Shown: positions 7,800 through 38,996 of the stretch, in pieces
Layout: each line of letters starts with the position of its first letter
Position numbering within the stretch: position 1 is the stretch's first letter
NCBI GenBank assembly: GCA_036374135.1
Contig: DASUUK010000024.1
Coordinates: forward strand, 17,305-81,304
Source: Euzebyales bacterium
GTDB taxonomy: Bacteria > Actinomycetota > Nitriliruptoria > Euzebyales > JAHELV01
Direction of reading: 5' to 3'
Length of the DNA: 64,000 nucleotides
Notes under the pieces: generated by a model
What the model was told of the DNA's origin: nothing
Seen by the model: only the letters and a program-made list of their open reading frames with translations
The model's database searches: none
Made by a program: the position numbers and the translations under genes

Positions 7800-9308
7800 C
7801 TACCGGTCCTGCTGCGCCGGGAAGTCGACCGGCCGGGTCCCCAGGGTCTCGTCCCGACGTGGGATCGGCGCGTCCTGCGAGCCCTCCCAGGTGTTCGCGG
7901 GGACGAGCGGCAGGGTCAGCAGGCAGCTCACCCGCTTGCTGCCGGCGAGGCGCAGGGTGGCGTACAGCGGCTGATCGGCGGACACGGTGACGGGCGCGCC
8001 GCCGTCGGTGACCCCCGCCTGCGCGAACGGCAGGAGGCGCATCTCGCCCGCTGCGATCTCGAGGGCGTCCCACCCCTCGGGCGCGACGCCCGAGGCGCTG
8101 GCGGTGGCCGTGACCGGTGTGGAGCCGGCGTTGTACAGCGCGAGTGCAGGACCCGTGCCACCGGGCGCTGTCGCCGCGACGCTGGTCTGATCGGCCTCAG
8201 GGATCCCGGCCAGCGAGGTCACGGCGGCGTCGTCACCGCTCCTGGCGACGAAGCTGGTCGCGACGAAGCCGACGTCGTTGGTCGACGTCACCGTCACACC
8301 GAAGGTCGACTTCGACGACAGTCCTTCGAGCTCGATCCGCTCGACGCTCTCGGGCCCGACGACCACCTCCTGCGCCACGGCCTCCGCGGCGACCTCGTCG
8401 CTGGCGCTCACCTCGAGCTCGGCGGAGCGGGTGTTCGGGTTCAGGACGGTGATCCACGACGCGTTGCGCTCGTCGGCGGCCGCGTATGCGAACCCGGCGG
8501 AGGTCGCGTCGGACGGTTGCGCCTGCAGCACGGTCCGTCCCGCCGGCGCACCGGTGTCGCTGGACACCCCGGCTCCGTCGAGCTCGATGTCCGGCAGATC
8601 CGGTTGACCGAACTGCTGCACACCGGTGGCGATGACCCGGCCCGCGTCGACCTCGACGATCACGCCGAGGTCGGGTTGCTCGGGTTGTAGATCGCTCACA
8701 TCCACCGCGATGACGTCACGGGCGGGCACCGACAGGTTCTCGCTGGACACCAGGTTGACCCGCCCCTCGGGTGTGGCGAAGGCGACACGCGCGACGGCGT
8801 CGGAGTCAAACGGGTTGAACAGGTAGACGCGCGTGCTTGATCCGATGACGGTCGAGGCACCGCTCAGCAGCCAGCGGGGCGCGGGACTGGGGGTGCACGA
8901 GTCGCCCAGGCGGTCGCCTCCACGCCCCTCCACGTTCCACGAGGCGGTCGCGGGCCCGCCCCGCCAGCGGATCTCCACGGCGGGCGGACGCCTGCCGCCG
9001 TCGATCTCGATCTCCTCGGTGTCGCCCGGTTCGAGCTGGCGGGGCTCACCCAGATCCTCGACCTGACCGCCACCCACGCTGGCGACGGTCACCCGTGACG
9101 TGTCCTCACCCGCGGCCGCGACGGTCAGCGTGGCCGTCTCGCCGTTGCGCGCGATCGGGACGCAGTACCACGCGCCGCTGTTGACGTCGATCTGCTCGGC
9201 GAACGTCGCGGACGGCGGCTCGGGTGCCGCGACGACGCGGTCGGCGGCCACCGTTGCGCCAACCAGCAACGCGAGAACGGTCAGGACGAATGCGATCTGC
9301 CGGCTCAT
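7800..9308 (-). CDS. Secreted/anchored protein of unknown function, DUF5719-like
   Basis: 502 aa. It has an N-terminal hydrophobic signal/anchor (IAFVLTVLALLVGATVAA) and Ala/Val/Gly/Thr-rich beta-type sequence with no catalytic motif. GGGGAG lies 7 nt upstream of the ATG. It sits directly downstream of the giant GT2. Confidence 0.6.
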   Translation of the reverse strand: MSRQIAFVLTVLALLVGATVAADRVVAAPEPPSATFAEQIDVNSGAWYCVPIARNGETATLTVAAAGEDTSRVTVASVGGGQVEDLGEPRQLEPGDTEEIEIDGGRRPPAVEIRWRGGPATASWNVEGRGGDRLGDSCTPSPAPRWLLSGASTVIGSSTRVYLFNPFDSDAVARVAFATPEGRVNLVSSENLSVPARDVIAVDVSDLQPEQPDLGVIVEVDAGRVIATGVQQFGQPDLPDIELDGAGVSSDTGAPAGRTVLQAQPSDATSAGFAYAAADERNASWITVLNPNTRSAELEVSASDEVAAEAVAQEVVVGPESVERIELEGLSSKSTFGVTVTSTNDVGFVATSFVARSGDDAAVTSLAGIPEADQTSVAATAPGGTGPALALYNAGSTPVTATASASGVAPEGWDALEIAAGEMRLLPFAQAGVTDGGAPVTVSADQPLYATLRLAGSKRVSCLLTLPLVPANTWEGSQDAPIPRRDETLGTRPVDFPAQQDR

Positions 9309-9323
9309 CGTGAACTCCCCGAC

Positions 9324-12300
9324 CTACCGCAGGTCGCCGGTGATCGTGGCGGCCGCCGCGGCACGCGCGGCGGGCCCGGGCATGGGGGCCGGGTACGGCC
9401 CGACGTGGACGTCGTCGATGTCGCGACGGTCGACGCCGCTGCGCGGCGGCCGCAGCGCCAGCGAGATCACGGCGAACACGGCCAGCAGCTGCGCTGCGAC
9501 CACCCAGAGGTGCCGTGTCTCGCCGCCTGGGGTGATCTCCAGCCGGCCCGGCTCGGTGATCTCGTAGACGTTGGCGTACACACCCGGCACGGCTTGCAGC
9601 CGTTGGCCGTCGAGCTCGACGTTCCAGCGTGACGACCGGGCCTCCGACAGCAGGAGCCAGCCCGGCACCACGTCGCCGGTGTACGACCCGGGCGCGGTCT
9701 CACGGAGGCCGTCGTCCTCGAGGGCGCCGGTGTCGACCTGCCGCACGGCATCGGCGGCGGACTGCGCGGTGTCAGCGGGCACGACCGCGGCACGTGGCAG
9801 CCACGTCGACACCTCGAAGATCTGCCCGGCGCCGGATGGGAGCGGCTCCAGATCGGGTTGGGCGGACAGCAGGCCGGCGATCTCCGAGCGGTTGTCGCGA
9901 TCGTGGATCACGACGTAGCGCACGTTGAGGAGACCGAGCTCGAGCGCGGCACGCGGATCGCCCAGGCCGATCGATGCCACCGACCGTGCGAAGTCGCCGG
10001 AGAGCGGCTCGCTCGGCGACGTGCCGAACTGCAGCATCGTGGGGCCGTCGGCGTCGGTGACGTCCCAGTCGAGCGTGTCCTCACCGCCGGACAGCAGCAG
10101 GATCCGGTAGTTGCCGATGCGCTCGACGTCGGCGGCCACGAACGCCGGGACCAGGTCGCGGGCGATGCGCAGCTCCGACCACGGATCGGTGACCACCCGG
10201 TACAGCCCGCCGGCGAGCCCGGCGACCAGCACGAGCGCGCATCCGGCCGCCAGCACCTGGCGGAGCCCGAAGTTGTAGGTGCGGAGATGATCGCTGATGC
10301 TGCGGGCGGCGAGTGTCGCCAGCCCCGCCAGCGCCAGGGCGCCGGGCAGCAGCAGCGCCGGGATCCACGTGGTCTCCAGACCCAGGAAGCCGATCCCCCA
10401 GGCGATCATGCCCCAGATGGTGATGACGCCGAGCAGGACGACCACAGCGGTCGCACGCCCGCGGCCCGTCAGCAACAGGGCGGCGCCCACGACGCCGGCC
10501 GTGACCAGCGCCGCGACGTACACGCCGATCGGTTCGAGCCCGGGAAGGATGTCGGGGGCCAGCAGGAACGCCTGCCAGGCGGTCACCGGCTCGAACGGGG
10601 CGGCGTCGATGACCTGCCCACCGCTCCGGACCACGTCGGCCAGCCAGGGGGCCAGCACGATGAGCGCGAGCGGGGCGGCGCTGAACGTGCGCAGAAGCGC
10701 CCCGCGACGCGACCCCACGCCCGCCGCGACCACGGCGGTCAACCAGATGCCCGCCGGCACCATCCACGCCCCCGGTGCGGCCGACCACAGGATCGCGAGC
10801 ACCAGGGCCATGACCGCCGACGCGCGCCAGCCCTCAGCCGGTGTCCGGCGGTGGTCGGCGCTCCAGACGGCGAGCACCACCAGGCCGGGCAGCAGCGCGG
10901 CGACCAGCAGTTCGCTGAACCGTCCCTCGGCCAGCGCGCCGAGGACCGCGGGGCTCAGCGTGTACACGGTGGCGCCGAGCAGACGTGGCCACATGCGGGT
11001 CGACAGCAGCCGCCCGGCGCGGATCGTCAGGATGAACGCCAACGGCAGCATGCCGAGGACGACCAGGCGCTGGGCCAACCACATCGAGCCGAGACCCAGG
11101 TAGCTGAGCAGACCGAGCACCGGTTGGACGGGTGGCAGGAACGACCAGGATCCCAGCGGGTCGCCGTGCCACGGGTGGGTGTACGCGCGGATGAAGTCCG
11201 TGGCCTCGTCGGGCCACGGCAGCACCTGGCCACCGATGATCTGCCCGCCGCCGAGCAGCGGGATGGCGCCCACGAGATAGAGCGCCAGCAGGATCGGCCC
11301 GACGATCAGGCTGGGGTGGCGTCGCAGGAACGCGCCCAGCGTCCGCGACTGGGACGTGCGCAGGGTCGCGGTCGTCGGATCCTCGAGCAGGCGTGGCGTC
11401 CGCGAACCCGACAGCCAGGTACCGATGGCCTCGCCGTAGTCGCGCAGCCGCGCCCACGGACTGGCGAACAGCGGACGAAGGTCACTGTCGGTCCGTCGTC
11501 GCAGCTGCTGCACCCCGCGTCGCAGCAGCAGCGTGCGCGGGAGCCTGAGCACGTTCCAGCCGACGGCCTTCAGGCCGGCCGTGCCCGCACCCACGCGGCG
11601 GGTCAACAGCAGCCCCAGCGCCCGGAACAGGAACAGCACCGTGCCGACCGGGATCAGCAGCGCCAGCCGCGCCAGGCTGTAGTTCTTGAGCATCGCCGCG
11701 AGCGTGTGGCGCTCTGTCAGGTACTCGACCTCGTGGGAGCGGTCCTCACCGAGGGGACGTCCGCCACGCTCGCCCGCACTGACGTGGTAGCCGACCGCGT
11801 GCGGTACGACCCGCACGCGGTAGCCCGCGATCCATGCGCGCCAGCACAGGTCCAGGTCCTCGCGCGCGAACGACATGCGGGTGTCGAACCCACCGAGCCC
11901 CTCGTACGCGTCGGACCGCACGATCATGCCGGCGGTCGACACGAACAGCGTGTCGGTCTCCTCGTCGTGCTGACCCTGGTCGATCTCGCCGGGGTCCAGC
12001 TGTCGTGACCACCGGCCGAACGGATCGATCGTCTGGCCGACCTGCTGGACCAACGGCTCCTGGGACCACTCGCGCAGCTTGGGTCCGGCCACCGCGACCT
12101 CGGGGTCGGCCTCCATCGTCGCCAGCAGCGTGGCGACGGTGTCGACGGTCATCACGAGGTCGTCGTGGAGCATGAGGACCAGCGGCGCGCCGGCCAGCGC
12201 CGGGTGTCTCCGGCCGATCTCGAACGCCTCGGCGAATGTGCGCGGCTCGTCGAGCCGGACGAGCCGGTCGGCGGTCACCCGCGATGTGAGCAGGTCCGAC

Positions 12301-12458
12301 GACCCGTCGGTCGAGGCGTTGTCGACGACGATCAGTTCCAGGGCGGCGATGCGCCAGTCTGCGATCGTGCCCAGGATCACCGGCAGCCATCGCAGGCCGT
12401 TGTGGACGACAAGGACAACGCCGAGACGTGGGCGAGCTACCGAATCTGTGAACGACAT
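9324..12458 (-). CDS. Family-2 glycosyltransferase fused to a large polytopic membrane domain and a C-terminal extracytoplasmic domain
   Basis: 1044 aa. The N-terminus has a GT-A fold (VVLVVHNG, VVDNASTDGS, MLHDD, REDLDLCWR). It is followed by roughly 15 or more hydrophobic segments and a ~250-aa soluble C-terminus. Confidence 0.85.
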   Translation of the reverse strand: MSFTDSVARPRLGVVLVVHNGLRWLPVILGTIADWRIAALELIVVDNASTDGSSDLLTSRVTADRLVRLDEPRTFAEAFEIGRRHPALAGAPLVLMLHDDLVMTVDTVATLLATMEADPEVAVAGPKLREWSQEPLVQQVGQTIDPFGRWSRQLDPGEIDQGQHDEETDTLFVSTAGMIVRSDAYEGLGGFDTRMSFAREDLDLCWRAWIAGYRVRVVPHAVGYHVSAGERGGRPLGEDRSHEVEYLTERHTLAAMLKNYSLARLALLIPVGTVLFLFRALGLLLTRRVGAGTAGLKAVGWNVLRLPRTLLLRRGVQQLRRRTDSDLRPLFASPWARLRDYGEAIGTWLSGSRTPRLLEDPTTATLRTSQSRTLGAFLRRHPSLIVGPILLALYLVGAIPLLGGGQIIGGQVLPWPDEATDFIRAYTHPWHGDPLGSWSFLPPVQPVLGLLSYLGLGSMWLAQRLVVLGMLPLAFILTIRAGRLLSTRMWPRLLGATVYTLSPAVLGALAEGRFSELLVAALLPGLVVLAVWSADHRRTPAEGWRASAVMALVLAILWSAAPGAWMVPAGIWLTAVVAAGVGSRRGALLRTFSAAPLALIVLAPWLADVVRSGGQVIDAAPFEPVTAWQAFLLAPDILPGLEPIGVYVAALVTAGVVGAALLLTGRGRATAVVVLLGVITIWGMIAWGIGFLGLETTWIPALLLPGALALAGLATLAARSISDHLRTYNFGLRQVLAAGCALVLVAGLAGGLYRVVTDPWSELRIARDLVPAFVAADVERIGNYRILLLSGGEDTLDWDVTDADGPTMLQFGTSPSEPLSGDFARSVASIGLGDPRAALELGLLNVRYVVIHDRDNRSEIAGLLSAQPDLEPLPSGAGQIFEVSTWLPRAAVVPADTAQSAADAVRQVDTGALEDDGLRETAPGSYTGDVVPGWLLLSEARSSRWNVELDGQRLQAVPGVYANVYEITEPGRLEITPGGETRHLWVVAAQLLAVFAVISLALRPPRSGVDRRDIDDVHVGPYPAPMPGPAARAAAAATITGDLR

Positions 12459-12562
12459 GGAGGAAGGACTGGCGCTCGAGAAGAGATTCCGCCCGCTTCA
12501 CCGGGCCGTAACCCTACGCATCGTAGCCCGTCGGCTTCACTCGCCCACGGGGGTGCACCTGC

Positions 12563-12982: not shown

Positions 12983-14332
12983 CTACTCTGCGTCGTTCTT
13001 ACGGAGCCACGTGTGCATGTCCGGCTCACGTCCGTGGGTTCCCGGCCGGTACAGCTGACCGGACACGAGCCCGTCCGGTCCGTACTGCTGTGCCACCCAG
13101 CCGCGGGGGTCGTCATGGGGATAGCGGTATCCCGCGCCGTGGCCCAGCCGTTTCGCGCCCTTGTAGTGCGCGTCACGCAGGTGCGCCGGCACGGCGGCGT
13201 TGCCCAGCCGTTCGACGGCACGGTCGGCATTGACCAGCGCGTTCGTGACGCTGTTCGACTTGGGTGCCAGCGCGAGGTACAGGGCGGCCTGCGCCAGCGC
13301 GAAGCGTGCCTCGGGAAGTCCGACCGACTCCAGCGCGTGCCACGCCGATGTCGCCACCGACAGCGCGTCCGGATCGGCGAGCCCGACGTCCTCGCTGGCC
13401 AGGATGATCATCCTGCGTGCCAGGAACCTGGGGTCCTCGCCCTCGGTGAGCATCCGTACCAGCCAGTAGACGGCCGCATCAGGATCCGAGCCCCGCAGCG
13501 ACTTGATGAACGCGCTGACCTGGTCGTAGTGGGCGTCACCGGACTTGTCGTAACGCATGTGAGGGCTGCCCAGCGCGACCCGCACGTCATCACCGGTCAC
13601 TTCACGGCCCGCGGCGGTCGCGGCCGCCGCCTCGAGTCCGGTCAACGCCACCCGGGCGTCGCCGTCGGCGGCCGCGATCAACGCGGTCCGCGCGTCGCGA
13701 GCCAGCTGCACACCTGGAAGGCCGTCAGCGCGGTCCAACGCCCGATCGATGACCCGGCCGATCGCGTCGTCGTCCAACGGACGCAGCCGATACAGCAGGC
13801 TGCGCGACAGCAGTGGTGCGTTGACCTCGAAGCTGGGGTTCTCGGTCGTGGCACCGATCAGCGTCACCGAGCCGTCCTCCACCGCCGGCAGGAGTGCATC
13901 CTGCTGCGCCCGGTTGAAGCGGTGGATCTCGTCGATGAACAGCACCGTGGCGCGGTCGGCGGCATCGCGGCGCGTCCGCGCGCGCTCGATCTGCTCGCGG
14001 ACCTCGCGTACGCCGGCGGTCACCGCCGACAGCTCCACGAACGCGGCGCTGGTGGTCGCCGCGATCACACGTGCCAGGGTCGTCTTGCCGGTGCCCGGTG
14101 GTCCCCACAACACGATGCTGCGCAGCGCGTCGGTCTCGATCGCACGCCGCAGTGGCGAGTCGGGACCGGTCAGCTGCTCCTGACCGATCAGCTCCTCGAG
14201 CCGCGCCGGGCGCACCCGCGCCGCGAGCGGGACGCCGGCCGATGACGTCGTCGGCGGTACGTCCACGTCGGGCGGCTCGGCGCCGAACAGCGACGCCGTG
14301 CCACCCGGGTCGTCCTGGAGACCCCGGGTCAC
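12983..14332 (-). CDS. rarA: Replication-associated recombination protein A (AAA+ ATPase)
   Basis: The C-terminal 450 aa of ORF 12983..15220 carry Walker A (LWGPPGTGKTT), Walker B (LFIDEIHRFN) and the MgsA C-terminal motifs (HYDQVSAFIKSLRGSD, AHLRDAHY). The start is placed at GTG 14332 (VTRGLQDD...SLFG). The longer ORF overlaps the divergent csaB-like gene. Confidence 0.9.
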   Translation of the reverse strand: MTRGLQDDPGGTASLFGAEPPDVDVPPTTSSAGVPLAARVRPARLEELIGQEQLTGPDSPLRRAIETDALRSIVLWGPPGTGKTTLARVIAATTSAAFVELSAVTAGVREVREQIERARTRRDAADRATVLFIDEIHRFNRAQQDALLPAVEDGSVTLIGATTENPSFEVNAPLLSRSLLYRLRPLDDDAIGRVIDRALDRADGLPGVQLARDARTALIAAADGDARVALTGLEAAAATAAGREVTGDDVRVALGSPHMRYDKSGDAHYDQVSAFIKSLRGSDPDAAVYWLVRMLTEGEDPRFLARRMIILASEDVGLADPDALSVATSAWHALESVGLPEARFALAQAALYLALAPKSNSVTNALVNADRAVERLGNAAVPAHLRDAHYKGAKRLGHGAGYRYPHDDPRGWVAQQYGPDGLVSGQLYRPGTHGREPDMHTWLRKNDAE

Positions 14333-14435
14333 GGCGCGCTCGGCGTGGTCGATGCGTCCATCAGGCAACGGTAACGCCTCGACGCCCGTGGTGGGCACGC
14401 CATCCACGGTCGGTGAGCACGGGAGGTGGCAGCGC

Positions 14436-15515
14436 GTGCGCGTGACCGTCGCCGCCTGGATCGGCTCGGCCAACGCGGGTGACGAGCTGATCTTCGCCGC
14501 GCTGCGCGCGAAGCTCGTCGCGCGCGGTGCGCGCGTGACGGCGATCACCGCGCACGCCCGCGACGCCGACGGTGGCGTCCCGGCGGTGGGCCACCTCGAC
14601 GCCGCCGCCGTGTGGCGGGCGGTCGCGGGCGGCGATGCGCTGGTGTTCGGCGGTGGCGGACTGCTCCAGGACCAGACGTCGTCGTTCAACCTGCCGTTGC
14701 ACCTGTCACGGCTGTGGATCGCGGGGCTGACGCGGACACCGCACGCGGTCGTCGGCGTCGGAGCGGGTCCGCTGCAGACACGCATCGGACGGGGCCAGGT
14801 GCGCCGCGCGCTGCGGGGTGCGACGGCCGTGACCGTCCGGGATCGCCCATCCGCACGGACCCTGCGGCGCGCAGGCGTGCGCGGCGTACGGGTGACCGCC
14901 GACCTGGCCGTGTCCCTGCCGTCACCCCAGGTCGCGCCGGCGGACGCCATCACCGCGTGCCTTCGTCCCTGGCGCGGGGGACGCAACTGCCTGCCCGTCG
15001 CCACGCGAGCCGCCCGCGACGTCACACCGGAGGCGATGGTCGACCGTCTCGCGCGGGGCCTCGATGCCGCTGCGGGGGCGCTCGGGCTGCCCGTGCGACT
15101 GGTCGCGATGCAGCGCGGGTGGGACGATCTGCTCCACGCCCGCGTCGCACGGCGACTGCGCGCGCCCGTGACACTGCTGAGTCCTCCACCGGAGCGGGTC
15201 GTCGCCGAGATCGCGGCCACCCGTGTGGTGGTGGCGATGCGCTACCACGCGGCCGTCGCCGCCATACTCGCCGGGCGCCCTGCGGCGCTGATCGGCTACG
15301 CGCCGAAGGTGGCGGCGATCGGGGCCGAGATGGGCCCCGCGGCACGCATGGTCGGGTGGACGCCCGAGGCGCTGGACGGTCTGGCCGACGCGGTGCTCGC
15401 CGTCGCGGGTCGCGACCACGACCTGCCCGCCGTGCTCAGCGACCTGCGCGCACGTGAGCGCGGCAACGACACCGTGCTCGACGATCTCCTCACGCTCGCC
15501 GAGGCCCGCCGCTGA
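14436..15515 (+). CDS. csaB: Polysaccharide pyruvyl transferase (CsaB-like)
   Basis: VTVAAWIGSANAGDELIF...GDALVFGGGGLLQDQTS...VGVGAGPL...VTVRDRPS fits the PS_pyruv_trans pattern. GTG 14436 is preceded by GGGAGGTGG. Confidence 0.85.
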   Translation: MRVTVAAWIGSANAGDELIFAALRAKLVARGARVTAITAHARDADGGVPAVGHLDAAAVWRAVAGGDALVFGGGGLLQDQTSSFNLPLHLSRLWIAGLTRTPHAVVGVGAGPLQTRIGRGQVRRALRGATAVTVRDRPSARTLRRAGVRGVRVTADLAVSLPSPQVAPADAITACLRPWRGGRNCLPVATRAARDVTPEAMVDRLARGLDAAAGALGLPVRLVAMQRGWDDLLHARVARRLRAPVTLLSPPPERVVAEIAATRVVVAMRYHAAVAAILAGRPAALIGYAPKVAAIGAEMGPAARMVGWTPEALDGLADAVLAVAGRDHDLPAVLSDLRARERGNDTVLDDLLTLAEARR

Positions 15516-15592
15516 CGGCGGCATCGCCACCGGCGACCGCCTACCGGTGTCAACCCCGACCGGCTCCGGGGCGGGCACATCGCACCGGGGGT

Positions 15593-16717
15593 TCAGCCAT
15601 GCGCCACACGGCCGACCGGCGGGGGCGGGTCGCGCGTGAGTGCGAGCAGGTCGGCCAGGATCCGCTCGGACGGGCGCCGGTCGAGGTCCGCCCGTCCACG
15701 GCGGTAGCGGTCGGGATCGGCGATGACCTCGGCGACGGTCTGCGGGCGGTAGCCGGACAGCACCACGTTGGCGCCGAGTCCGTCGGACCGCTCCGTCCTC
15801 GCCCGCCACAACAGCGTCGGCACCCCCAGCAGCGCGCACTCCTCCTGCACACTGCCGCCGTCGGTGATGACCAGCCGCGCGCCGGCGATGGCGTGCACGA
15901 ACGCCCGATGGGAGATCACCGGCGACACCTCGATCCCGGCGTCGATCACACGCCCGTGCAGGCCCATCCGGTGCAGAGCGCGCACGGTCGGCGCGTGGAC
16001 CACGAACAGCACCCGCATGGTCGTGGCCAGCCGCTCCACGGTCGCGACGAGGCGCTCGACCCGTCGTCGGCTGGTCAGGTTCTCGACCCGGTGCATCGTC
16101 ACCACCGCCCCGCCGCCCGATGGCCGTGCCCGCCCGAGCGCGTCGCGCAACGCGTCGATCACCGTGTTGCCGTCGAGCGCCACCGACCGACGATCGAGTC
16201 CCATAGCGCGCAGGTTGTCCATCGCGGCGGCATCGGGCGCGAACAACCTGGTGGCCAGGCGCATCACGAGGACCCTGATCGCCTCCTCGGGAAACGGCTG
16301 GCGCAGGCTGTGCGAGCGCAGGCCCGCCTCGAGGTGGGCGACCGCCAGCCCGGCACGCCTGGCCAGCAGCGCTGACAGCAGCGTGGATGGCGTGTCACCG
16401 TGGACGACGCACACGCCGCCACGGTCGCCGAAGATCTCGCGACGGACGGCGCGCGACGACCACAATCGTCCGGCGATGCCGCCGGCCCAGGCGACGGCAC
16501 CGGCGATCGAGGTGATGTCGTCGGCACCGCCGAGCACGACGTCCGGCTGCCGGACCCCGAGATCGGCACGCATCGTGGCGGACAGGCGCGCGTGCTGGCC
16601 CGAGTCGATCAGCCGGTGATCGATGCCGCGTGCCGTCAGCAGGCGCAGCAGCGGCGCGGTCTTGATGTACTGGGCCTTCGTGCCCACGAAGATGTGGATG
16701 GCGTCCTTGCCTCGCAC
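15593..16717 (-). CDS. UDP-N-acetylglucosamine 2-epimerase (WecB/MnaA)-like protein
   Basis: IHIFVGTKAQYIKTAPL, VVHGDTPSTL, AHLEAGLRS and ITDGGSVQEE match non-hydrolysing 2-epimerase motifs. The start is placed at GTG 16717 after GGAGGGG. The track ORF (to 16927) has an Arg/Cys-rich, implausible extension. Confidence 0.8.
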   Translation of the reverse strand: MRGKDAIHIFVGTKAQYIKTAPLLRLLTARGIDHRLIDSGQHARLSATMRADLGVRQPDVVLGGADDITSIAGAVAWAGGIAGRLWSSRAVRREIFGDRGGVCVVHGDTPSTLLSALLARRAGLAVAHLEAGLRSHSLRQPFPEEAIRVLVMRLATRLFAPDAAAMDNLRAMGLDRRSVALDGNTVIDALRDALGRARPSGGGAVVTMHRVENLTSRRRVERLVATVERLATTMRVLFVVHAPTVRALHRMGLHGRVIDAGIEVSPVISHRAFVHAIAGARLVITDGGSVQEECALLGVPTLLWRARTERSDGLGANVVLSGYRPQTVAEVIADPDRYRRGRADLDRRPSERILADLLALTRDPPPPVGRVAHG

Positions 16718-16905
16718 CCGCCGGATCCCCTCCGCGCCATGCTCTGGACCTGGGCGTCGCAGGCACCGTCGAGGTGGCAGCATAACCACGCGCGTCGCCC
16801 CCACCGCGGCACGGCGGCGGCAGCGCGACATGTGCAGCACATCGACGGCGCGACCAGGGCCCCGACTTTGGCGTCGCGAACCCGAGGGCGGCGTCGAGCA
16901 GGTGC

Positions 16906-16920
16906 GCGAACGGTGTTCGC
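16906..16920. promoter_or_regulatory. Perfect 6-3-6 inverted repeat GCGAAC-GGT-GTTCGC, candidate TetR operator
   Basis: Seen directly. It lies 27 nt upstream of the tetR ATG, and TAGAGT (16934-16939) is a -10-like hexamer just downstream. It sits in the divergent intergenic region shared with the epimerase-like gene. Confidence 0.4.
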
Positions 16921-16946
16921 ACTGCAACTTCTGTTAGAGTGCCGGC

Positions 16947-17708
16947 ATGCCGACACGACGAGAGCGCCTACGCGCCGAGCTGACGGGCCAGATCAAGGCC
17001 GCTGCACTCGAGCGTCTGCAGACCCACGGGGCCGATGGACTGTCACTGCGGGCAGTCGCACGCGATGTCGGGCTGAGCGCACCGGGCATGTACCGCTACT
17101 TCGACAGTCGTGACGCGCTGCTGACGGCACTCATCACCGAGGGTTACGAGGACCTGGCCGATCACGTCATCTTCGCGGTCATCGGGAGCGACCAGCCGCT
17201 GTCGGACGGTGATCGGCCTGCGCCGATGGTGCCGGAGCGCGTACCGGTCAACGCGCCACCGGCGCAGCGCTTCGGTGCGTCGGCGCGGGCGTACCGGCAC
17301 TGGTCACGAACCCATCCCAACGAGTTCGCCCTGCTGTACGGCACTCCGATCCCCGGGTACGCGGCGCCCACGGGTGGCCCGACCGTCGACGCCGTGCGAC
17401 GGATGTCGATCGCGCTGCTCCGTCCCCTGGTGGAGGCGCACGTCGTCGATGCGCTCCGCATCCCCGAGAGCTTCGCCGCCGACGACCTCGGGGACGCGAC
17501 CGCGCTGCTGCGTGCCGACATCGCCGATCTGGCGGGCATGCCCGTCCCCGCGGCGCTGCCGCCGTTCCTCCTGGCGACGTGGGCGCGTCTGCACGGCATC
17601 GTCACCCTCGAGGTGTTCAACCAGTTCGCGTTCGCGTTCGGCGACGACGCCGGCGACCTGTTCGAAGCCGAGCTCGCGTCACTCACCGCGCAGACGTTCA
17701 TCGGCTGA
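16947..17708 (+). CDS. TetR/AcrR family transcriptional regulator
   Basis: N-terminal HTH (LSLRAVARDVGLSAPGMYRYFDSRDALL) and a C-terminal ligand domain with a WxxLHG-type ending (TWARLHGIVTLEV). Confidence 0.9.
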   Translation: MPTRRERLRAELTGQIKAAALERLQTHGADGLSLRAVARDVGLSAPGMYRYFDSRDALLTALITEGYEDLADHVIFAVIGSDQPLSDGDRPAPMVPERVPVNAPPAQRFGASARAYRHWSRTHPNEFALLYGTPIPGYAAPTGGPTVDAVRRMSIALLRPLVEAHVVDALRIPESFAADDLGDATALLRADIADLAGMPVPAALPPFLLATWARLHGIVTLEVFNQFAFAFGDDAGDLFEAELASLTAQTFIG

Positions 17709-17835: not shown

Positions 17836-20800
17836 CTACGGTGAGCCGAGCAGGTAGTCCATCGAGCGCTGCATCACCTCGTTGCGCTCCGCTTCGGTGG
17901 CGATGCCCTCGAACCCGAAGCCGTGCAGCACCGTGTCCTCGGTCGTGATCGCGGCCCCGAACTGGTAGATCGCGCCGATGCGTTGCCAGTCGGTCGGGTT
18001 CGTCCCGCTACCCTCCGGAGCACCGATGACCTCCCAGCCACCGAGGTCCTGCTCGAACGATGTCTCGGCCAGCGTGGCGCCGTCCGCGGTGATGACCGGC
18101 TCGTCCACGAACACCCCGAGGTCACCGGTCGCCCAGTCAGTGGCGTAGGTCAGCGAGACCTCGATCTGCTGACCGACGTACGCCGACAGGTCGATGGACC
18201 AGTCCTCGATGCCGTCCGACGGACCCGATGTCGCGTGCCACTCGCCCGTGGTGCCGGTTCCCGAGCACGTGGCCTGGCCGTCCTCGTCGGTGGTCACCGT
18301 CTGGTAGTGCTCGAGCTGCGGGTGGATCTGCTCCGCCCATCCACTGGTGCACGACGAGCCCGTGTCGACCGATGTGTGCCCGTTGCTGTCAGGCAGCGTC
18401 GTCCAGTTGTCCTCGCCGACGGTGTGCACCTCGACGAAGAAGTAGTCCCAGTCGGCCTCGGTCTGGTAGGTCGTCGAGAACTCGAGCGTCGCGCTGGTGC
18501 CGGCGCCCGTCAGGTCGATCGCCCGGGCCAGGCGCTTGTAGGACCGGTCGTTGTGCTGGGCCGCAACCTGCCACTCGCCATCGGACGGCTCGAACGGCGC
18601 CGGCTCGCCGGTGAGCCATCTGGCCGACCGCCACGACTCGAACTGTGGGAACTCGTCGACCGGCAGCACACCGCTGGTCGCAGCCCAGGACGCCGTGCCC
18701 GTGCTGGCGGCGCCCGGCGCGCCCTGGTTGTCCGCGCTCTCGTCGCCGTCGAGGCCCCACTCGAGGTCGGCGTACGGCGTGTCCACACCGGCGATGTCGA
18801 ACGCGATGCCGTCGTCGTCGAGCCCACCGCGACGTATCCGTACGTAACCTCCGAAGTAGTACTGGTAGGTGTCGTTCGACAGCGTCAGGCAGTTGTTGCT
18901 CGTGCAGACCTCGGTCGGGTCGGCGTTCTCGCCGTAGGAGAGCGGGAAGAACTCCTCGAAGCCGTGGTTCTTGCCCGTCGCGAGGATCTTGCCGCCCTCG
19001 TTGAGGTAGTCGCGCATGGCCATGTTGACCTCGTGCGCGACCAGCGTGGTGTTCAGCCCTCCCTGGTAGTTGGTGACGAGCTTGTCGCCCGTGTACCAGA
19101 CCACCGCGTCGTAGTGGGCCAGCACGCCCAGCGGGTGCGGTGCGGGGCCGTCGATGCCCACGTCGTACACGTCCCAGCCGTACCCGGCCGCGTCGAGCGC
19201 CTTGGTGTAGTAGTCGAGGTACGCCAGCGGCGTCGTGCCACCGAGGTCGGTGCCGGGGCTGTTGTCCGCGACGATCAGTACCTCGTCACCACTGGTGCTC
19301 TCGACCGTGAACGTGAAGTGGTCACTCTCGACCGTCTCTGCGCCACCGCGCGGACCTGCGCTGGTCTCTCTGCGCTCGGGCAGATCCCTGGCTGTGAACC
19401 AGACCTCGACCTCGTCGCCGGCCGCGATGTCGGTGATCTGACCGCGGTACTCGGCGTACCAGACGTTGTTCTCGACGCCGTAGCGCTCGCCGCCCTGCCA
19501 CTCGGAGACGTCGGTCACCCGCGTGCGACCACCGTTGACCGAGTGGTGCATCCTGAGCCGGGTGTGCTCGCGCTTGGTCCACATCGCAACCGTCTGCGGC
19601 GCGCCGTAGCTGACGGAGAAGTCGTCGACCACGAAGTCGGGCGCCGGTGTGCCGACCGGTGACTCGGGGTCGGCCGGGTCGTCAGCGGACTCGGCCATGG
19701 CGAGCGCGAAATCGAGGTTCTTGGCGAACTCGAACTCCACCAGCGGCTCGGAGTCGGGGAACTCGAAGACGGACCGTCCCTCGTCGGTGCAGTAGTCCGG
19801 ACCGAACTCGTCATCGGTGAAGTAGGTGGTCGCCGTCTGGCACGTCGCGAGCTCCGGCGTGTATGCCAGGACCCCGTAGGCGGTGTGGGCGTGGTCCGTC
19901 GTGTCGCCGTTGGTGATGTAGAGCTCGGCCGACAGATCGGGGTCGTAGCCCTCGATCGCCGGATTGGCGTCGGTGCCTGCGAGCGCGATGTTCACGGCGT
20001 CGTCCGGCGTCGGCGTGTCGACCTGCCAGCCGACGCCGTACAGGATCAGCTCTGCGGCGGAGTGGTAGTTCACCAGGAACGAGAAGTCGACCGACGACAC
20101 CAGCCCGTCCAACGCCTGCGTCTCGGGCTCGGACGCCGGACCCGTCCCGCGGTAGGTCTCGCTGGACGGATCCTCGGACGATCCTTCGTTGTCGTAGCCC
20201 CAGTTGGTCGGGAAGTTGCGGTTGAGGTCGACGCCGTCACCGGTGGTGATCGCTCCATCCCCGTCGTTGTCGCGGAGGTTCTTGCGCCAGAGGCGCTGGC
20301 CGTCGGTGAAGGTCCAGTCGTACCCGTCGGGGTTGGCGACCAGCACGAACCACAGCTCGCGGCTGTCGACCAGCCTGGTCACCTGCGCATCGGTGCCGTA
20401 GCTCTCGAGGAAGTGGCGCAGCAGCCGGCGGTTGACCTCCGTGCTGATCCACTCGCGGGCGTGCTGGGTCGAGACGTACAGCACGGCCGGACGCTGGCCC
20501 TCCTGCACCCGGTCGGCGTCGGCGGTGACGCGCATGGCATAGATCGGCTGACCCTGGACGCTCTCGCCGATGGTGATGAGCTCGGTCAGGCCGTCGTACT
20601 GCGAGGCCAGCAGCTCCAACTCGTCGGCGATGCCGCCGGGCTCGCTGAAGCTTCGCCACACCTCGAAGCCGTTGTCGGCCTCGAGCGTGGCCGCCTGGGC
20701 TGTCGTCAGCCCATCGTCGCTGCGCTTGAGCCGGACCTCGAGGCCGCGCCTGCGGCCGTTGCCCTGGCGCAGTGCATGGGCCTGACCCTCGGTGAGGACC

Positions 20801-21015
20801 AGCTCGATCCTGACCTTGCGCCCGTTCCGCACGGGCTCGGCGGACGCGACGTTGTAGCCCTCGCCGCGCAGCTGGGCCTCGGTGCCCGGATCGGCCGTCA
20901 CCTCGTACAGGTCGAGACCCTTGGCCTCGCCGTTGCCATTCCCCCGCGGCGCGGCTGTGGCCGCCGCCGGCAGCAGCAGCGTCAGGACCGCGACCAGAAC
21001 GACGAGCCTGCGCAC
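17836..21015 (-). CDS. Secreted M14 zinc carboxypeptidase with a ~650-aa uncharacterised C-terminal extension
   Basis: Zn ligands and catalytic context are present (YVSTQHAREWIS, NPDGYDW, DLNRNF, NYHSAAELILY). The signal peptide starts at GTG 21015 (VRRLVVLVAVLTLLLPAAATA), preceded by GGAAGGA. The track ORF starts at 21081. Confidence 0.85.
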   Translation of the reverse strand: MRRLVVLVAVLTLLLPAAATAAPRGNGNGEAKGLDLYEVTADPGTEAQLRGEGYNVASAEPVRNGRKVRIELVLTEGQAHALRQGNGRRRGLEVRLKRSDDGLTTAQAATLEADNGFEVWRSFSEPGGIADELELLASQYDGLTELITIGESVQGQPIYAMRVTADADRVQEGQRPAVLYVSTQHAREWISTEVNRRLLRHFLESYGTDAQVTRLVDSRELWFVLVANPDGYDWTFTDGQRLWRKNLRDNDGDGAITTGDGVDLNRNFPTNWGYDNEGSSEDPSSETYRGTGPASEPETQALDGLVSSVDFSFLVNYHSAAELILYGVGWQVDTPTPDDAVNIALAGTDANPAIEGYDPDLSAELYITNGDTTDHAHTAYGVLAYTPELATCQTATTYFTDDEFGPDYCTDEGRSVFEFPDSEPLVEFEFAKNLDFALAMAESADDPADPESPVGTPAPDFVVDDFSVSYGAPQTVAMWTKREHTRLRMHHSVNGGRTRVTDVSEWQGGERYGVENNVWYAEYRGQITDIAAGDEVEVWFTARDLPERRETSAGPRGGAETVESDHFTFTVESTSGDEVLIVADNSPGTDLGGTTPLAYLDYYTKALDAAGYGWDVYDVGIDGPAPHPLGVLAHYDAVVWYTGDKLVTNYQGGLNTTLVAHEVNMAMRDYLNEGGKILATGKNHGFEEFFPLSYGENADPTEVCTSNNCLTLSNDTYQYYFGGYVRIRRGGLDDDGIAFDIAGVDTPYADLEWGLDGDESADNQGAPGAASTGTASWAATSGVLPVDEFPQFESWRSARWLTGEPAPFEPSDGEWQVAAQHNDRSYKRLARAIDLTGAGTSATLEFSTTYQTEADWDYFFVEVHTVGEDNWTTLPDSNGHTSVDTGSSCTSGWAEQIHPQLEHYQTVTTDEDGQATCSGTGTTGEWHATSGPSDGIEDWSIDLSAYVGQQIEVSLTYATDWATGDLGVFVDEPVITADGATLAETSFEQDLGGWEVIGAPEGSGTNPTDWQRIGAIYQFGAAITTEDTVLHGFGFEGIATEAERNEVMQRSMDYLLGSP

Positions 21016-21224
21016 CCTGTTGGTCCTTCCGCCAAGTCCGCGCACGTCGACGTGCGCGCCGACGGCGCGCATTGTGCGCACACGACCGGGTTCGCTTCAA
21101 GGGGTGACGTACCCAGCGGTGGCGCACAACGCGACCGGCGTCCGAGCACTCCGTGTCGGCGGCACAGCGGGGGTCGACATCGCCCGTCGCAGGGCGGAAA
21201 GGAGCGCCGGACCGCGCTGCGCCG

Positions 21225-22844
21225 TCAGGGGCGCGCGCACGTGCTGTCGCCGACCCCGAGCACCCTGATGCGGTCGCTGTTGGTCGCCAGCAGCACCCGC
21301 CACGCGCTGGGTGGCCTCTGCAGGTAGTCGGGCACGGGGAGCCCTTCGAGCTGCCGCCGCTGGATCGCGACCCGCGAGCGGATCAGCGCGCCGGTCTCGA
21401 GCTGAGAGACGTCCACGAAGTCGTCGCCCGAGTTGAGATGACGCAGCTCACCGTGCCAGATCGGACGGCCCCAGAAGGTCCGCAGGTACATCGGCACCCA
21501 ACGGGAGCTCGCCCGCCACTGGTCCGTGTCGACCCAGATCGTCGTGCACGTCTGACCGCTGGTCGACGCCCACTCCCGCAGCTCGAGCATCTGGTTGCGA
21601 CCCAGCCTCGTGAACGTACCCATGTCGTCGAGGTCCGCGCCCGTCAGTCCGAGGCTCGCCGCGGCCACGACACCCACGAGCGCCACCGCCGCGCGGCGGC
21701 CACGGTCACCTGCGAGCTGACGTCCGAGCGCCAGGATCCCCACCACCGACCCCACGACCAGCGGCGGCAGGAGCGGCAGCCAGTAGCGCAGCTTCTCGAC
21801 GCGCAGGATCCGGTCGCCGAACAGCCACGCGAGCTGCACGGCCGACATCAGCAGGACGAGGGGCACGACCGTCCACAGCGCGAGCAGCCTCAGCGCCGGC
21901 GAGTCCACCATCACCGCGGCGACGACCAGCACGACGAACAGGACCGCGAGCACCCAACCCGCGCGGAGATCGACCAAGGAGCGCGGCAGCGCGACCAGCA
22001 TCTCGAGATGGGTGTCGGGTATCGCGCCACCGGCGACCAGTTCGGTGCGTTGCGCGACCCGCCAGGGCGCGGAGGCCGGCTGGTTGAGCGCTGCGAGGAT
22101 GCGCGTGAACGGGTCGCCGAAGAACACCGCCCCCCACGCGAGCTCGAAGGCGCACACGCCGGCGACACCGGCGACGATCAATCGGGCCCGTGACCACGGC
22201 AGCCGCAACACGATCACGACCAGCACGACGATCGGGAACCAGAAGACGATGAACTCGCGGACCAGGTAGGCCCACCCGAGCAGCAGGCCCACGCCGACGA
22301 ACACAGCCCGATCGGAGGTCGTGGGCGGCCCGGAGACTCCCGACCGGCGCCAGTGCCATACCAGGATCGTCACCGCGCCCAGCACCATGGTGGCCGCAGG
22401 CAGGTCCGGTAGCAGCTGGCTGCCGTTGTCCAGCACCAGCGGGTTGGCGATCATCAGCAGCGCAGCCAGCACGCCGGCCGCGCGCGAGTCCACGAGCCGC
22501 CCGAGCCAGTAGGTGGTGCTCACCAGCGCGGCGCCCGTCAGGTAGGGCACGCCGTAGTAGGCCACCTCGCTGTACCCGAACACGCGGGTGAGCAGCCACA
22601 CGGGGATGGTCAGGCCGATGCGCAGCCCCTGATGCTCGGGCCAGCTGACGAGCGGCAGGTTGGCGCCGTCGACCAGGTAGTGCAGCTGATCGGTGATCTG
22701 CGGTGGCCGGACAAAGGCGCTCTGCAGGGCCGCGTAGCACCCGACGAGCGCGAGGACCACCAGCCAGTCGTACCCGGCGCCCCGCTCCGCCGGTTCGTCG
22801 GTCGAGGGTCGATGCAGCCGCAGGGGCTCGAGCAGCGTCGTCAC
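21225..22844 (-). CDS. Polytopic membrane protein, GT-C (ArnT/PMT_2, family-39-like) glycosyltransferase candidate
   Basis: 539 aa with about 11 hydrophobic segments. An early loop has an acidic motif (ITDQLHY), there are Gly/Leu-rich TM helices, and a ~150-aa soluble C-terminus. The assignment rests on architecture and pattern only. Confidence 0.6.
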   Translation of the reverse strand: MTTLLEPLRLHRPSTDEPAERGAGYDWLVVLALVGCYAALQSAFVRPPQITDQLHYLVDGANLPLVSWPEHQGLRIGLTIPVWLLTRVFGYSEVAYYGVPYLTGAALVSTTYWLGRLVDSRAAGVLAALLMIANPLVLDNGSQLLPDLPAATMVLGAVTILVWHWRRSGVSGPPTTSDRAVFVGVGLLLGWAYLVREFIVFWFPIVVLVVIVLRLPWSRARLIVAGVAGVCAFELAWGAVFFGDPFTRILAALNQPASAPWRVAQRTELVAGGAIPDTHLEMLVALPRSLVDLRAGWVLAVLFVVLVVAAVMVDSPALRLLALWTVVPLVLLMSAVQLAWLFGDRILRVEKLRYWLPLLPPLVVGSVVGILALGRQLAGDRGRRAAVALVGVVAAASLGLTGADLDDMGTFTRLGRNQMLELREWASTSGQTCTTIWVDTDQWRASSRWVPMYLRTFWGRPIWHGELRHLNSGDDFVDVSQLETGALIRSRVAIQRRQLEGLPVPDYLQRPPSAWRVLLATNSDRIRVLGVGDSTCARP

Positions 22845-23017: not shown

Positions 23018-24199
23018 TCAGGCGCCGCGGCCACCCTCCGGGGCGCCGCCGGCCGCGCCGTCGACGGCGGGCTGGGCGACATCGCCTCCCTGCTCGTCCC
23101 CCGCCCGGCCACCGGTGTCCTGCCGAGCGCCGGCCTGCGCGCCGTTCTGGTCGTTGCTCCCCTGGCCGCCACCCCGCCGGTTGCCTCGCTGGCCCCCGCC
23201 GCGGCCGTTGCGCCCCTGGCCGCGTCCGCCACCACCGTTGCCGCGGGCACCACGACCCTTGCCGCGCCGCTTCTTGTCACGACGGATCTCGCTGGCCATC
23301 TCGGTGCGGTAGCGGTCGACGACCGTCCGCGGATCGCCGTCCGCGACCAACTGGCCCTTCTCGAGCCAGATCACCCGCGTGCAGGTGTCGACGAGTCCCT
23401 CGAGCCCGTGGCTGACGACGAAGATCGTCCCCGCAGCGTCCTGCAGCTCTCGGATCCGCTCGTCGCTGCGGCGCTTGAAGACCTCGTCGCCGACCGACAG
23501 CGCCTCGTCGATGAGCAGGATCTCGGGCTTGACCGACGTCGCGATCGAGAACTGCAGCCGGGCCTTCATCCCCGACGAGTAGGTGCGCATCGGCAGGTCG
23601 ATGGCTTCCTCGAGGCCGGCGAACTCGGTGATCTCGTCGACCGCCGCCTCGGCCTCCTGCTTGGACATGCCGAGCGCCAGCGTGCCGATGACGATGTTCC
23701 GCCGTCCGGACAGCCACGGCTGCAGCACGGCGCCGACGCCGAGCAGGGACGGCTGGCTGTGCGCGAGGATGCGCCCGCCGTCGACGGGCAGCAGACCGGC
23801 CATGCCCATGAGCAGGGTGCTCTTGCCGGAGCCGTTGCGGCCGATGATGCCGACCGACTCGCCGGCGCGGGCCTCGAACGACACGCCGCGCACGGCGTGG
23901 ATCTCGCGGAACTCGCGCGACCCCCTGCCGGCGAATCGGTCGCGGGCCTTCGGCCGACGACGGTCCTCATAGACCCTGTACGTGATGTGGACGTCGTCGA
24001 CGACGACGGTCAGCCGCTCCTCGACGCTCTGCAGTTGACGCTTCCACGTCCGCAGCTGCGCCCGGCTCGGTGTCGGTGGCCCGAACGTGATCGCCTGGTC
24101 GGCGACGAGCCGGTGTCGCCGCGCGATCTCGGCCTCGGTCCACTGCTCGACCGCCGCGTCGGCGTCGGTGACCGCCTGCGCCACGTCCGCGTCAGCCAC
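23018..24199 (-). CDS. ABC exporter ATP-binding protein (Wzt/TagH-like) with an Arg/Gly-rich C-terminal tail
   Basis: Walker A (GRNGSGKST), signature (YSSGMKARL) and Walker B (ILLIDEAL). The last ~88 aa are RGKGRGARGNGGGGRGQGRNGRGGGQRGNRRGGGQG.... There is an 8-nt overlap with the permease gene. Confidence 0.9.
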   Translation of the reverse strand: MADADVAQAVTDADAAVEQWTEAEIARRHRLVADQAITFGPPTPSRAQLRTWKRQLQSVEERLTVVVDDVHITYRVYEDRRRPKARDRFAGRGSREFREIHAVRGVSFEARAGESVGIIGRNGSGKSTLLMGMAGLLPVDGGRILAHSQPSLLGVGAVLQPWLSGRRNIVIGTLALGMSKQEAEAAVDEITEFAGLEEAIDLPMRTYSSGMKARLQFSIATSVKPEILLIDEALSVGDEVFKRRSDERIRELQDAAGTIFVVSHGLEGLVDTCTRVIWLEKGQLVADGDPRTVVDRYRTEMASEIRRDKKRRGKGRGARGNGGGGRGQGRNGRGGGQRGNRRGGGQGSNDQNGAQAGARQDTGGRAGDEQGGDVAQPAVDGAAGGAPEGGRGA

Positions 24200-25049: not shown

Positions 25050-25281
25050 CGATGTCCGTCCAGGGCCGGTCCGGGGCCCCTCGTGTGGCCGTCCTCGCGT
25101 CCTGCGCGATGAGCGACGGGCGTTCCGATCTGCACCGGGCGTGTCGACGCGTCGGCGGCGCGCCAACTCCACGGCCGATTATCGCGCGTCCTCACTCTAG
25201 CCCGCGACCCGTGCACGGGATGCGGCCCGGGATGGACGACCGACGCTGGTCCACCCGTACGATGCGCGGCGCTTCGGACGT

Positions 25282-38975: not shown

Positions 38976-38996
38976 GCGACCCGGCCGGTCCCGGCC

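Follow-up and report, generated by a model that had tools for sequence, protein, structure and literature searches.

A convergent CsaB-like pyruvyltransferase and 2-epimerase gene pair in a Euzebyales genome, the remainder of a six-gene module

Pyruvylated secondary wall polymers that bear N-acetylmannosamine (ManNAc), and their part as ligands of SLH domains, are to our knowledge understood biochemically only in Firmicutes. In other phyla, genetic work on Thermus and cyanobacteria has shown a role for pyruvylated polymers and SLH domains. The DNA analyzed here, referred to as the window, is a 64-kb stretch (~71% G+C) of a metagenome-assembled genome (MAG) of the Euzebyales, class Nitriliruptoria. 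It contains two convergent genes, one for a CsaB-like pyruvyltransferase (PvT) and one for a UDP-N-acetylglucosamine (UDP-GlcNAc) 2-epimerase-like enzyme (Epi). The best explanation for the pair is that a module for modifying a cell-wall glycopolymer was ancestral to Nitriliruptoria and Acidimicrobiia, and that the two genes are its retained enzymatic core.

The secondary cell-wall polymer pathway of Paenibacillus alvei comprises MnaA, TagO, TagA, and CsaB, together with the SLH proteins SpaA and SlhA. MnaA, TagA, and CsaB build 4,6-Pyr-ManNAc-GlcNAc-PP-lipid (Hager et al., PMC6030368). The genes csaB, tagA, and tagO form one transcript, and mnaA is located elsewhere (PMC6030368). The window resembles this pathway in having a PF04230 enzyme that is closest to the CsaB model, with conserved residues of the phosphoenolpyruvate (PEP) site and loop, and a partner of the UDP-GlcNAc 2-epimerase family. 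In the window's relatives, SLH-domain proteins are also encoded beside the transferase. Unlike P. alvei CsaB, the window enzyme has WxGS for YYGF, with Y14 and F16 replaced, and scores below the TIGR03609 cut-off. The gene linked here is the epimerase, not TagA or TagO, a PF03706 gene is the usual third partner in relatives, and the window is without SLH genes.

Mesnage et al. are said to have shown in 2000 that the csaAB operon of Bacillus anthracis, encoding the Wzx-like flippase CsaA and CsaB, is required for the anchoring of SLH proteins. Relatives of the window likewise pair the pyruvyltransferase with a putative lipid-linked glycan flippase, in presumed functional coupling with SLH proteins. 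Unlike CsaA, this flippase-like partner belongs to PF03706 (MprF/HpnL-type) and not to MOP/Wzx, it is absent from the window, and the lineage is Actinomycetota. Anchoring of the B. anthracis S-layer to a pyruvylated wall polymer is mentioned by Witwinowski et al. (bioRxiv 10.1101/2021.05.31.446380). Their survey found co-occurrence of CsaB and SLH in "a few" Actinobacteria, Ca. Microthrix parvicella and a Nitriliruptoraceae MAG being positive; Euzebya tangerina and Egibacter were not scored as having both (bioRxiv 10.1101/2021.05.31.446380).

Co-occurrence of CsaB and SLH is, in relatives of the window, a feature shared with the tethering of the outer membrane or S-layer in Thermus, Cyanobacteria, and other Terrabacteria. 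Unlike there, the SLH proteins of the window's relatives are secreted enzymes (SpoIID, S8, CAP), not OmpM-type porins, and the window locus is without them. The chemically known pyruvylated wall polymers of Actinobacteria, from Promicromonospora and Nocardiopsis, carry pyruvate on sugars other than ManNAc, and SLH domains are common in Actinobacteria (PMC6801904). No description of an Epi-PF03706-PvT cassette, a WxGS motif, or pyruvylated ManNAc in Actinobacteria was found in the open-access literature. The author of an earlier note on this DNA knew of no such polymer described in the lineage. This holds for chemical descriptions, as none exists of a pyruvylated-ManNAc polymer from the phylum, but the survey does list CsaB with SLH in a few Actinobacteria. 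New here is a CsaB-like system with an altered acceptor site, different conserved partners, and a reduced form, a system predicted by the established paradigm and hinted at by the survey.

The two enzymes

Real and spurious open reading frames (ORFs) were sorted by frame analysis of third-position GC (GC3) together with an ORF listing. With Pfam and NCBIfam, these confirm at the family level the earlier assignment of a CsaB-like and a WecB-like gene in convergent orientation. The stop codons are 77 bp apart.

14436 to 15515, plus strand: CsaB-like ketal-pyruvyltransferase of the "WxGS" subfamily, 359 amino acids (PF04230, TIGR03609, PEP-site residues)
15593 to 16717, minus strand: non-hydrolysing UDP-GlcNAc 2-epimerase-like enzyme, presumed supplier of UDP-ManNAc, 374 amino acids (PF02350, TIGR00236, motifs)

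PvT starts at a GTG codon with a ribosome-binding site, GGGAGGTG, upstream. It matches Pfam PS_pyruv_trans (PF04230) over model positions 1-278 of 280 (E 1.1e-28, 101.4 bits; gathering score 25.3). The sole significant match in NCBIfam is TIGR03609, CsaB (E 2e-49, 168.4 bits). WcaK (colanic acid) and other exopolysaccharide pyruvyltransferases are members of the same Pfam family, but the WcaK models give 10 bits, and the context of PvT consists of genes for wall polymers and SLH proteins, not of a wca-type exopolysaccharide cluster. The AlphaFold2 (AF2) model of PvT has a predicted local distance difference test score (pLDDT) of 91.3 and a predicted template modelling score (pTM) of 0.90. Foldseek of this model against the PDB returned generic GT-B folds (2-epimerases and glycosyltransferases), which confirms the fold and does not discriminate the family. 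Sequence searches of the PDB with PvT, single and profile, gave a marginal match to Schizosaccharomyces pombe Pvg1p (5AX7, E 0.14), and no CsaB structure was matched.

A protein of a "Euzebyales bacterium" MAG (class Nitriliruptoria) matches PvT with 100% identity, in agreement with the earlier description of the genome as actinobacterial in type. A scan of one genome per GTDB species gave 165 relatives of PvT. The best 80 are almost all from Nitriliruptoria and Acidimicrobiia, with a few outliers such as Vibrio albus and a Verrucomicrobiaceae MAG, and no cultured Euzebya genome is among these best 80 of 165. A HMMER search of 1.84 billion cluster representatives found 98 representatives of the family at E<=1e-30.

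CsaB-likeness was judged by hidden Markov model (HMM) scores and published primer motif contexts, as proxies for phylogeny. Residues of P. alvei CsaB were mapped using the local contexts given by the mutagenic primers in Table S2 of PMC10435577. The PEP-site and loop residues R148, R207, R306, H308, and K328 of P. alvei CsaB correspond to R135, R177, R269, H271, and K291 in PvT, and all five are invariant in the family alignment.

P. alvei VSV-R148-DRESA; window TV-R135-DRPSA
P. alvei SL-R207-FW; window CL-R177-PW
P. alvei GM-R306-L-H308-S; window AM-R269-Y-H271-A
P. alvei YDP-K328-I; window YAP-K291-V

The P. alvei CsaB mutants R148Q/K, R207D, and H308A/R are inactive (PMC10435577). At the acceptor site, Y14A is also inactive, and F16 variants have a higher acceptor KM (PMC10435577). 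The acceptor motif of P. alvei, G-Y13-Y14-G-F16-NNSGD, is A-W8-I9-G10-S11-ANAGD in PvT. Among the best 150 representatives, essentially all readable motifs above ~135 bits are W-[aliphatic or other]-G-[S/A/T/G], mainly W-x-G-[S/A], and YYGF-type sequences are found only below ~135 bits. Judged by these motifs, PvT falls in a separate subfamily of CsaB-like enzymes, "WxGS", in which the donor site is conserved and the predicted acceptor site is altered. Because the acceptor-site residues are replaced, the acceptor may differ, and a ManNAc-GlcNAc-PP-lipid acceptor would follow only from the linked epimerase.

The start of Epi matches the N-termini of its orthologues. Epi matches Pfam Epimerase_2 (PF02350) at E 7.8e-53 and 180 bits (gathering score 30.6), and the model of the hydrolysing NeuC gives only 23 bits. 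Among solved structures, archaeal and bacterial UDP-GlcNAc 2-epimerases come closest to Epi (E 2e-31 to 1e-22), e.g., Methanocaldococcus jannaschii 4NEQ (E 2e-31), and the PDB matches also include P. alvei MnaA (9CM8). The motifs HGD, HLEAGLRS, PFPEE, HRVEN, and DGGSxQEE can be aligned with 4NEQ, and seven orthologues have them unchanged. We take them to be the equivalents of D95, E117, E131, and H213 of Escherichia coli WecB (catalytic acid/base, UDP-binding).

Both ORFs are intact and keep all family-invariant residues. The ratio of nonsynonymous to synonymous substitution rates (dN/dS) was calculated against L087 and L090, where Lnnn denotes a related locus compared with the window. It is 0.26-0.29 for PvT and 0.22-0.32 for Epi; RarA, for comparison, has 0.13. 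Such values indicate that PvT and Epi are both still under purifying selection.

The module in related genomes

Linkage was counted by tblastn of window proteins against the 44 related loci with at least 5 kb on either flank. An orthologous epimerase (48-72% identical) lies within 5 kb of PvT in 33 of them and within 10 kb in 38, which upholds the earlier view that the side-by-side position of the two genes is meaningful. A PF03706 gene is found within 5 kb of PvT in 31/44 loci, typically between PvT and Epi (L086, L090, L091, L092, L003, L076, and others). SLH-domain ORFs are within 5 kb of PvT in 20/44 loci and within 10 kb in 27/44. The 35 loci with a full 10 kb on either flank (20 kb each, 700 kb in total) contain 56 SLH ORFs, ~1 per 12.5 kb. 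By a rough argument, this density could be genome-wide only with hundreds of SLH genes per genome.

The closest informative comparison is with L086/L006 (PvT 63% identical), L091, and L092 (68-69%), which share the left-hand synteny GT2-WhiB-RarA with the window. Right of RarA, these loci encode CAP+SLH, SpoIID+SLH, S8 peptidase+SLH, PvT, PF03706, and a convergent Epi. The three genes abutting PvT in L086 match Pfam SLH with 49, 65, and 35 bits (gathering score 20.8). SLH genes directly adjoin PvT in L086, L091, L092, and L007. The corresponding sites in the window are two spacers.

14291 to 14435: short divergent spacer between RarA and PvT; relatives carry three SLH genes (CAP+SLH, SpoIID+SLH, S8+SLH) here
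15516 to 15592: convergent spacer between PvT and Epi, 77 bp; relatives carry a PF03706 (LPG_synthase_TM, flippase-like) gene here

L090, from a Euzebyales MAG (PvT 67% identical), has RarA, a 680-bp gap with a relic SLH domain, PvT, PF03706, and Epi. The relic is a 75-codon ORF (L090:9497-9724, minus strand) in which a proline-rich stretch is followed by a single SLH-like domain, ending ...VTRDQMTTFLARV... The domain was detected at E 2e-10 with a lineage-specific SLH HMM built from 315 domain instances in related loci. The ORF appears to be the C-terminal remnant of an SLH gene, one of the three in relatives. The window and L087 (PvT 82% identical) have RarA, PvT, and Epi only. Together these loci form a deletion series, from six genes (L086/L091) to three and a relic (L090) to two (window and L087). 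Because the six-gene arrangement is found in several lineages on both sides of the divergence, and because a relic is present, the polarity is one of deletion, not insertion. PvT and Epi of the window are what remains of the six-gene module, and four of the six genes have been lost from the locus.

Compact clusters are found in Acidimicrobiia. The order in L076 is GT2, SpoIID+SLH, double GT2, polytopic membrane protein, GT2, PvT, PF03706, Epi, Wzt, and Wzm, where the first GT2 is 52% identical to the window GT2 at 25282-26376. Orthologues of this window GT2 (42-52% identity) are found in the PvT/Epi/SLH clusters of L061, L075, L076, L078, and L079. Orthologues of Wzt/Wzm are clustered with PvT and Epi in six Acidimicrobiia loci (Wzt in L061, L073, L075, L076, L078, and L079). 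By these clusters, the GT2, Wzm/Wzt, and LCP of the window may serve the same polymer. Polytopic membrane proteins of 410-550 amino acids, with no Pfam match, are encoded directly upstream of PvT in the Acidimicrobiia loci L003, L061, L076, and L079. They have 30-61% mutual identity and are absent from the window. A single family of polytopic proteins near the cassette across lineages was rejected by BLAST, as only those of Acidimicrobiia are mutually related.

Outside Actinomycetota, Epi-PF03706-PvT is a co-directional operon, both in V. albus (L042:5056-15697) and at L004:6554-13206. The V. albus cassette is located in an island of ~11 kb between gap/pgk/fba and tkt/metK, with two GT2s, a PMT_2-like GT-C, and a sulfatase-fold protein. 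This distribution suggests that the trio is a horizontally mobile cassette.

PvT is also found alone. Egicoccus halophilus CP036250 (L001:7973-11086) and several Nitriliruptoraceae encode a PvT orthologue divergent from glmS, and no epimerase, PF03706, or SLH gene is located within 10 kb of PvT in these loci.

SLH proteins were also searched for directly in a set of 5.8 billion proteins, first with an SLH trimer as the query and afterwards with a complete SpoIID+SLH protein. Hundreds of SLH proteins were found, from Acidimicrobiia, Egibacteraceae, and Nitriliruptorales. None of the named matches has a Euzebyales label, and most matches are without a name.

Surrounding genes in the window

The gene order from the left is SecA, a LuxR-type response regulator, a ComF-like phosphoribosyltransferase, HisG, an SIS/PGI-like protein, phosphomannomutase, DUF5719, a 1057-amino-acid GT2, WhiB, RarA/MgsA (12986-14290, minus strand), PvT, and Epi. 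These are followed by TetR, a 1086-amino-acid M14 peptidase, a weakly PMT_2-like protein with 11 transmembrane segments, Wzt, Wzm, GT2, and LCP. The remainder of the window is housekeeping metabolism. A scan of 14100-17100 found no consensus promoter or intrinsic terminator. The envelope-related genes to the right of the pair are the following.

21225 to 22844, minus strand: polytopic membrane protein, ~11 transmembrane segments, weakly PMT_2/GT-C-like (PMT_2 E 0.008), adjoins Wzt
23018 to 24199, minus strand: Wzt/TagH-like ABC exporter ATPase (ABC_tran; NCBIfam TagH 170 bits, galactan Wzt 159 bits, both below cut-off)
24192 to 25172, minus strand: Wzm-like ABC-2 permease (ABC2_membrane 24.6 bits, gathering score 26.9; galactan Wzm 66 bits, KpsM 41 bits)
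25282 to 26376, minus strand: GT2 glycosyltransferase, 364 amino acids (Glycos_transf_2)
26395 to 27933, minus strand: LCP (LytR-CpsA-Psr) glycopolymer-peptidoglycan ligase with LytR_C (PF03816 141 bits, PF13399; TIGR00350 141 bits, cut-off 62)

The earlier note placed an LCP ligase and an ABC exporter close to the pair. Both exist, but they are 6.3-9.7 kb from Epi, and the TetR, M14 peptidase, and polytopic membrane protein genes are in between. The gene order of window 1-28000 (SecA...SIS/PGI-like, phosphomannomutase, WhiB...GT2, LCP) presumably resembles the conserved actinobacterial block around Mycobacterium tuberculosis Rv3240c-Rv3267. By this resemblance, LCP and GT2 would be part of a core synteny and would not have been specifically recruited to the pair. 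The GT2 at 25282-26376 is a candidate for the sugar transferase of the predicted polymer.

The membrane protein at 21225-22844 has an 86% identical orthologue in L087. It is a candidate extracytoplasmic glycosyltransferase or polymerase, and its link to the PvT/Epi pair is tentative. The neighboring gene (17836-21096, minus strand) encodes the 1086-amino-acid M14 carboxypeptidase, which has InhA-like MAM domains and large regions without domain assignment. Both genes are kept beside the Wzt gene in L087.

Three further observations concern other parts of the window. At 7800-12497 (minus strand), the 1057-amino-acid GT2, with a long C-terminal extension, is followed by the DUF5719 protein, upstream of WhiB. 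The two are conserved as a pair in L006, L008, L020, L087, and L090 and may be a separate envelope glycan system. Adjoining the LCP gene is a 281-amino-acid ORF (27965-28810, plus strand) whose GC3 is coding-like. Its match to the AMP-binding enzyme model is confined to the first ~80 model positions, and it may be a truncated or pseudogenised acyl-CoA synthetase. The region 36565-41630 encodes an 877-amino-acid galactose-oxidase/glyoxal-oxidase-like protein (Kelch repeats, GO-like E-set, H-type lectin), with a small cupredoxin nearby. We take the oxidase-like protein to be reminiscent of Streptomyces radical copper oxidases that act on surface glycans.

Readings of the gene pair

The favored reading is that the epimerase, the CsaB-like enzyme, and LCP would make a pyruvylated ManNAc wall polymer, which would anchor the neighboring SLH hydrolases in relatives. 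We consider this reading probable. Epi would convert UDP-GlcNAc to UDP-ManNAc, as suggested by its family membership and intact catalytic motifs. A glycosyltransferase, for which the GT2 at 25282-26376 is the candidate, would load ManNAc onto a polyprenyl-phosphate-linked precursor. By analogy with P. alvei CsaB, PvT would then use PEP to place a ketal pyruvate on the lipid-linked sugar at the cytoplasmic face. The product would be exported and joined to peptidoglycan by the LCP ligase. The PF03706 flippase-like protein may take part in export in relatives, and Wzm/Wzt would be the likely route in the window.

In relatives, the polymer is the likely ligand of the adjacent SLH-domain hydrolases (SpoIID-like, subtilase, CAP). 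Since PvT and Epi are under purifying selection, a pyruvylated polymer is probably still made in this genome. Here it would serve SLH proteins encoded elsewhere or act as an anionic wall polymer. We infer which sugar is pyruvylated, which lipid is the acceptor, how the product is exported and ligated, and what role the polymer has in a locus without SLH genes.

The earlier note had proposed a pyruvylated ManNAc polymer analogous to that of Firmicutes, and this proposal is supported in part. For the lineage, such a predicted polymer is strongly supported by comparative genomics, i.e., by the conserved pairing and by the three SLH genes that adjoin PvT at the same site in relatives. Several observations weigh against it. 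PvT and Epi score below the equivalog cut-offs of TIGR03609 (168.4 bits, cut-off 213.1) and TIGR00236 wecB (151.7 bits, cut-off 210.15). Y14 and F16 of the acceptor site are replaced (I/V and S/A) in every member of the subfamily. Pfam scans of the window and of relatives' loci gave no TagA (GT26) or TagO/WecA. The Epi-PF03706-PvT cassette of the V. albus island and that of L004 have no SLH genes, so the cassette is not strictly tied to SLH anchoring.

Other points concern the window itself. Pfam scans of ~50 ORFs found no SLH domain in the 64 kb, as the earlier note had observed, and the SLH HMM, applied to the six-frame translation with all filters off, had its best match at E 0.42. No PF03706 homologue was found in the window either. 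The loss of the adjacent SLH and PF03706 genes at the locus weakens the reading for this genome. The ABC exporter and LCP genes are 6-10 kb off, within a presumed core actinobacterial synteny block, and their link to the pair is circumstantial.

Extracytoplasmic decoration is an unlikely alternative to such a wall polymer. The cassette would make ManNAc or pyruvyl-ManNAc linked to polyprenyl monophosphate, which would be flipped and transferred outside onto a polymer or lipid, in the manner of GtrABC or CsbB/YfhO and not of the CsaB/TagA-type repeat-unit pathway. Three-component extracytoplasmic glycosylation systems include GtrA/GtrB/GtrC and CsbB/GtcA/YfhO. As in these systems, a GT2, a small flippase-like membrane protein, and a polytopic GT-C-like protein are found repeatedly around the cassette. 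The place between PvT and Epi is almost always taken by PF03706, the trio has GT2 genes on its flanks in L004, L042, and L076, and PMT_2-like GT-C or other polytopic proteins are adjacent in L042, L086, and the window. TagA/TagO is found in no Pfam-scanned locus, and PvT has other residues at the positions with which P. alvei CsaB contacts its ManNAc-GlcNAc-PP acceptor. However, the flippase family of the cassette is PF03706, and neither PvT nor Epi is known from the three-component systems. PMT_2 is matched weakly (E 1e-4 to 8e-3), the GT-C assignments are also weak, BLAST shows no mutual homology among the polytopic proteins of different loci, and PF03706 is absent from the window. Moreover, we know of no biochemical precedent for pyruvylation of a monophosphoryl-lipid-linked sugar.

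It is similarly doubtful that the pyruvylated residue is not ManNAc, or that the epimerase acts on another UDP-sugar, e.g., a UDP-2,3-diacetamido uronic acid, as WbpI/WlbD do. The product would then be an anionic exopolysaccharide, a teichuronic-like polymer, or a capsule, with no tie to SLH. The scores of Epi against UDP-GlcNAc 2-epimerases and against the Thermus UDP-2,3-diacetamido-2,3-dideoxy-glucuronic acid 2-epimerase are about equal (96-112 bits), and its wecB score is below the cut-off. The known actinobacterial pyruvylated wall polymers have pyruvate on other sugars (PMC6801904), and the Vibrio cassette is without SLH genes. Set against these points, CsaB is the sole matching curated pyruvyltransferase model (168 bits, compared to 10 for WcaK), and linkage to SLH-domain genes is tight and repeated in the closest relatives. 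No UDP-sugar dehydrogenase or aminotransferase is linked to the pair in the window, L086, L090, or L091.

A more speculative view, also improbable in our estimate, is that the WxGS pyruvyltransferases belong to a mobile Epi-PF03706-PvT cassette whose acceptor is presented differently from that of canonical CsaB, e.g., as ManNAc on polyprenyl monophosphate that is flipped and transferred outside. The product would be the SLH ligand in Nitriliruptoria and Acidimicrobiia, and the sampled Euzebyales would have dropped SLH anchoring and kept the polymer for an SLH-independent role.

It is very unlikely that PvT and Epi are non-functional remnants of an SLH-anchoring system that is decaying in this lineage. 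The locus has lost four of the six ancestral genes, the SLH relic of L090 is pseudogene-like, and neither SLH search gave a Euzebyales-labelled protein among its named matches (most matches being without a name). However, both ORFs are intact with all family-invariant residues, and the pair is kept in at least two diverged genomes (window and L087). Pseudogene decay of PvT and Epi is rejected on dN/dS grounds (0.22-0.32 against the two relatives). Chance adjacency of two unrelated sugar-metabolism genes would fit their convergent orientation, and hence lack of co-transcription, but is effectively refuted by synteny, as the orthologous pair is linked in 33-38/44 loci of two classes with several likely horizontal transfers, and in co-directional operons in L004 and L042.

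The relatives of this locus possess a conserved compact module in deep-branching Actinomycetota. It encodes a CsaB-like enzyme, an epimerase presumed to supply UDP-ManNAc, a flippase-like protein, and wall hydrolases with SLH domains as anchors, and under the favored reading is a concrete, testable gene set for wall anchoring in a phylum without a characterised example. The systematic replacement of the acceptor site is a natural experiment on substrate recognition by ketal-pyruvyltransferases. The deletion series shows the dismantling of an anchoring system and raises the question of what role a pyruvylated polymer has without neighboring SLH partners. For the window itself the gain is modest, namely a better annotation of two genes and a pointer for the rest of the genome, and it provides a lead for actinobacterial envelope biology.

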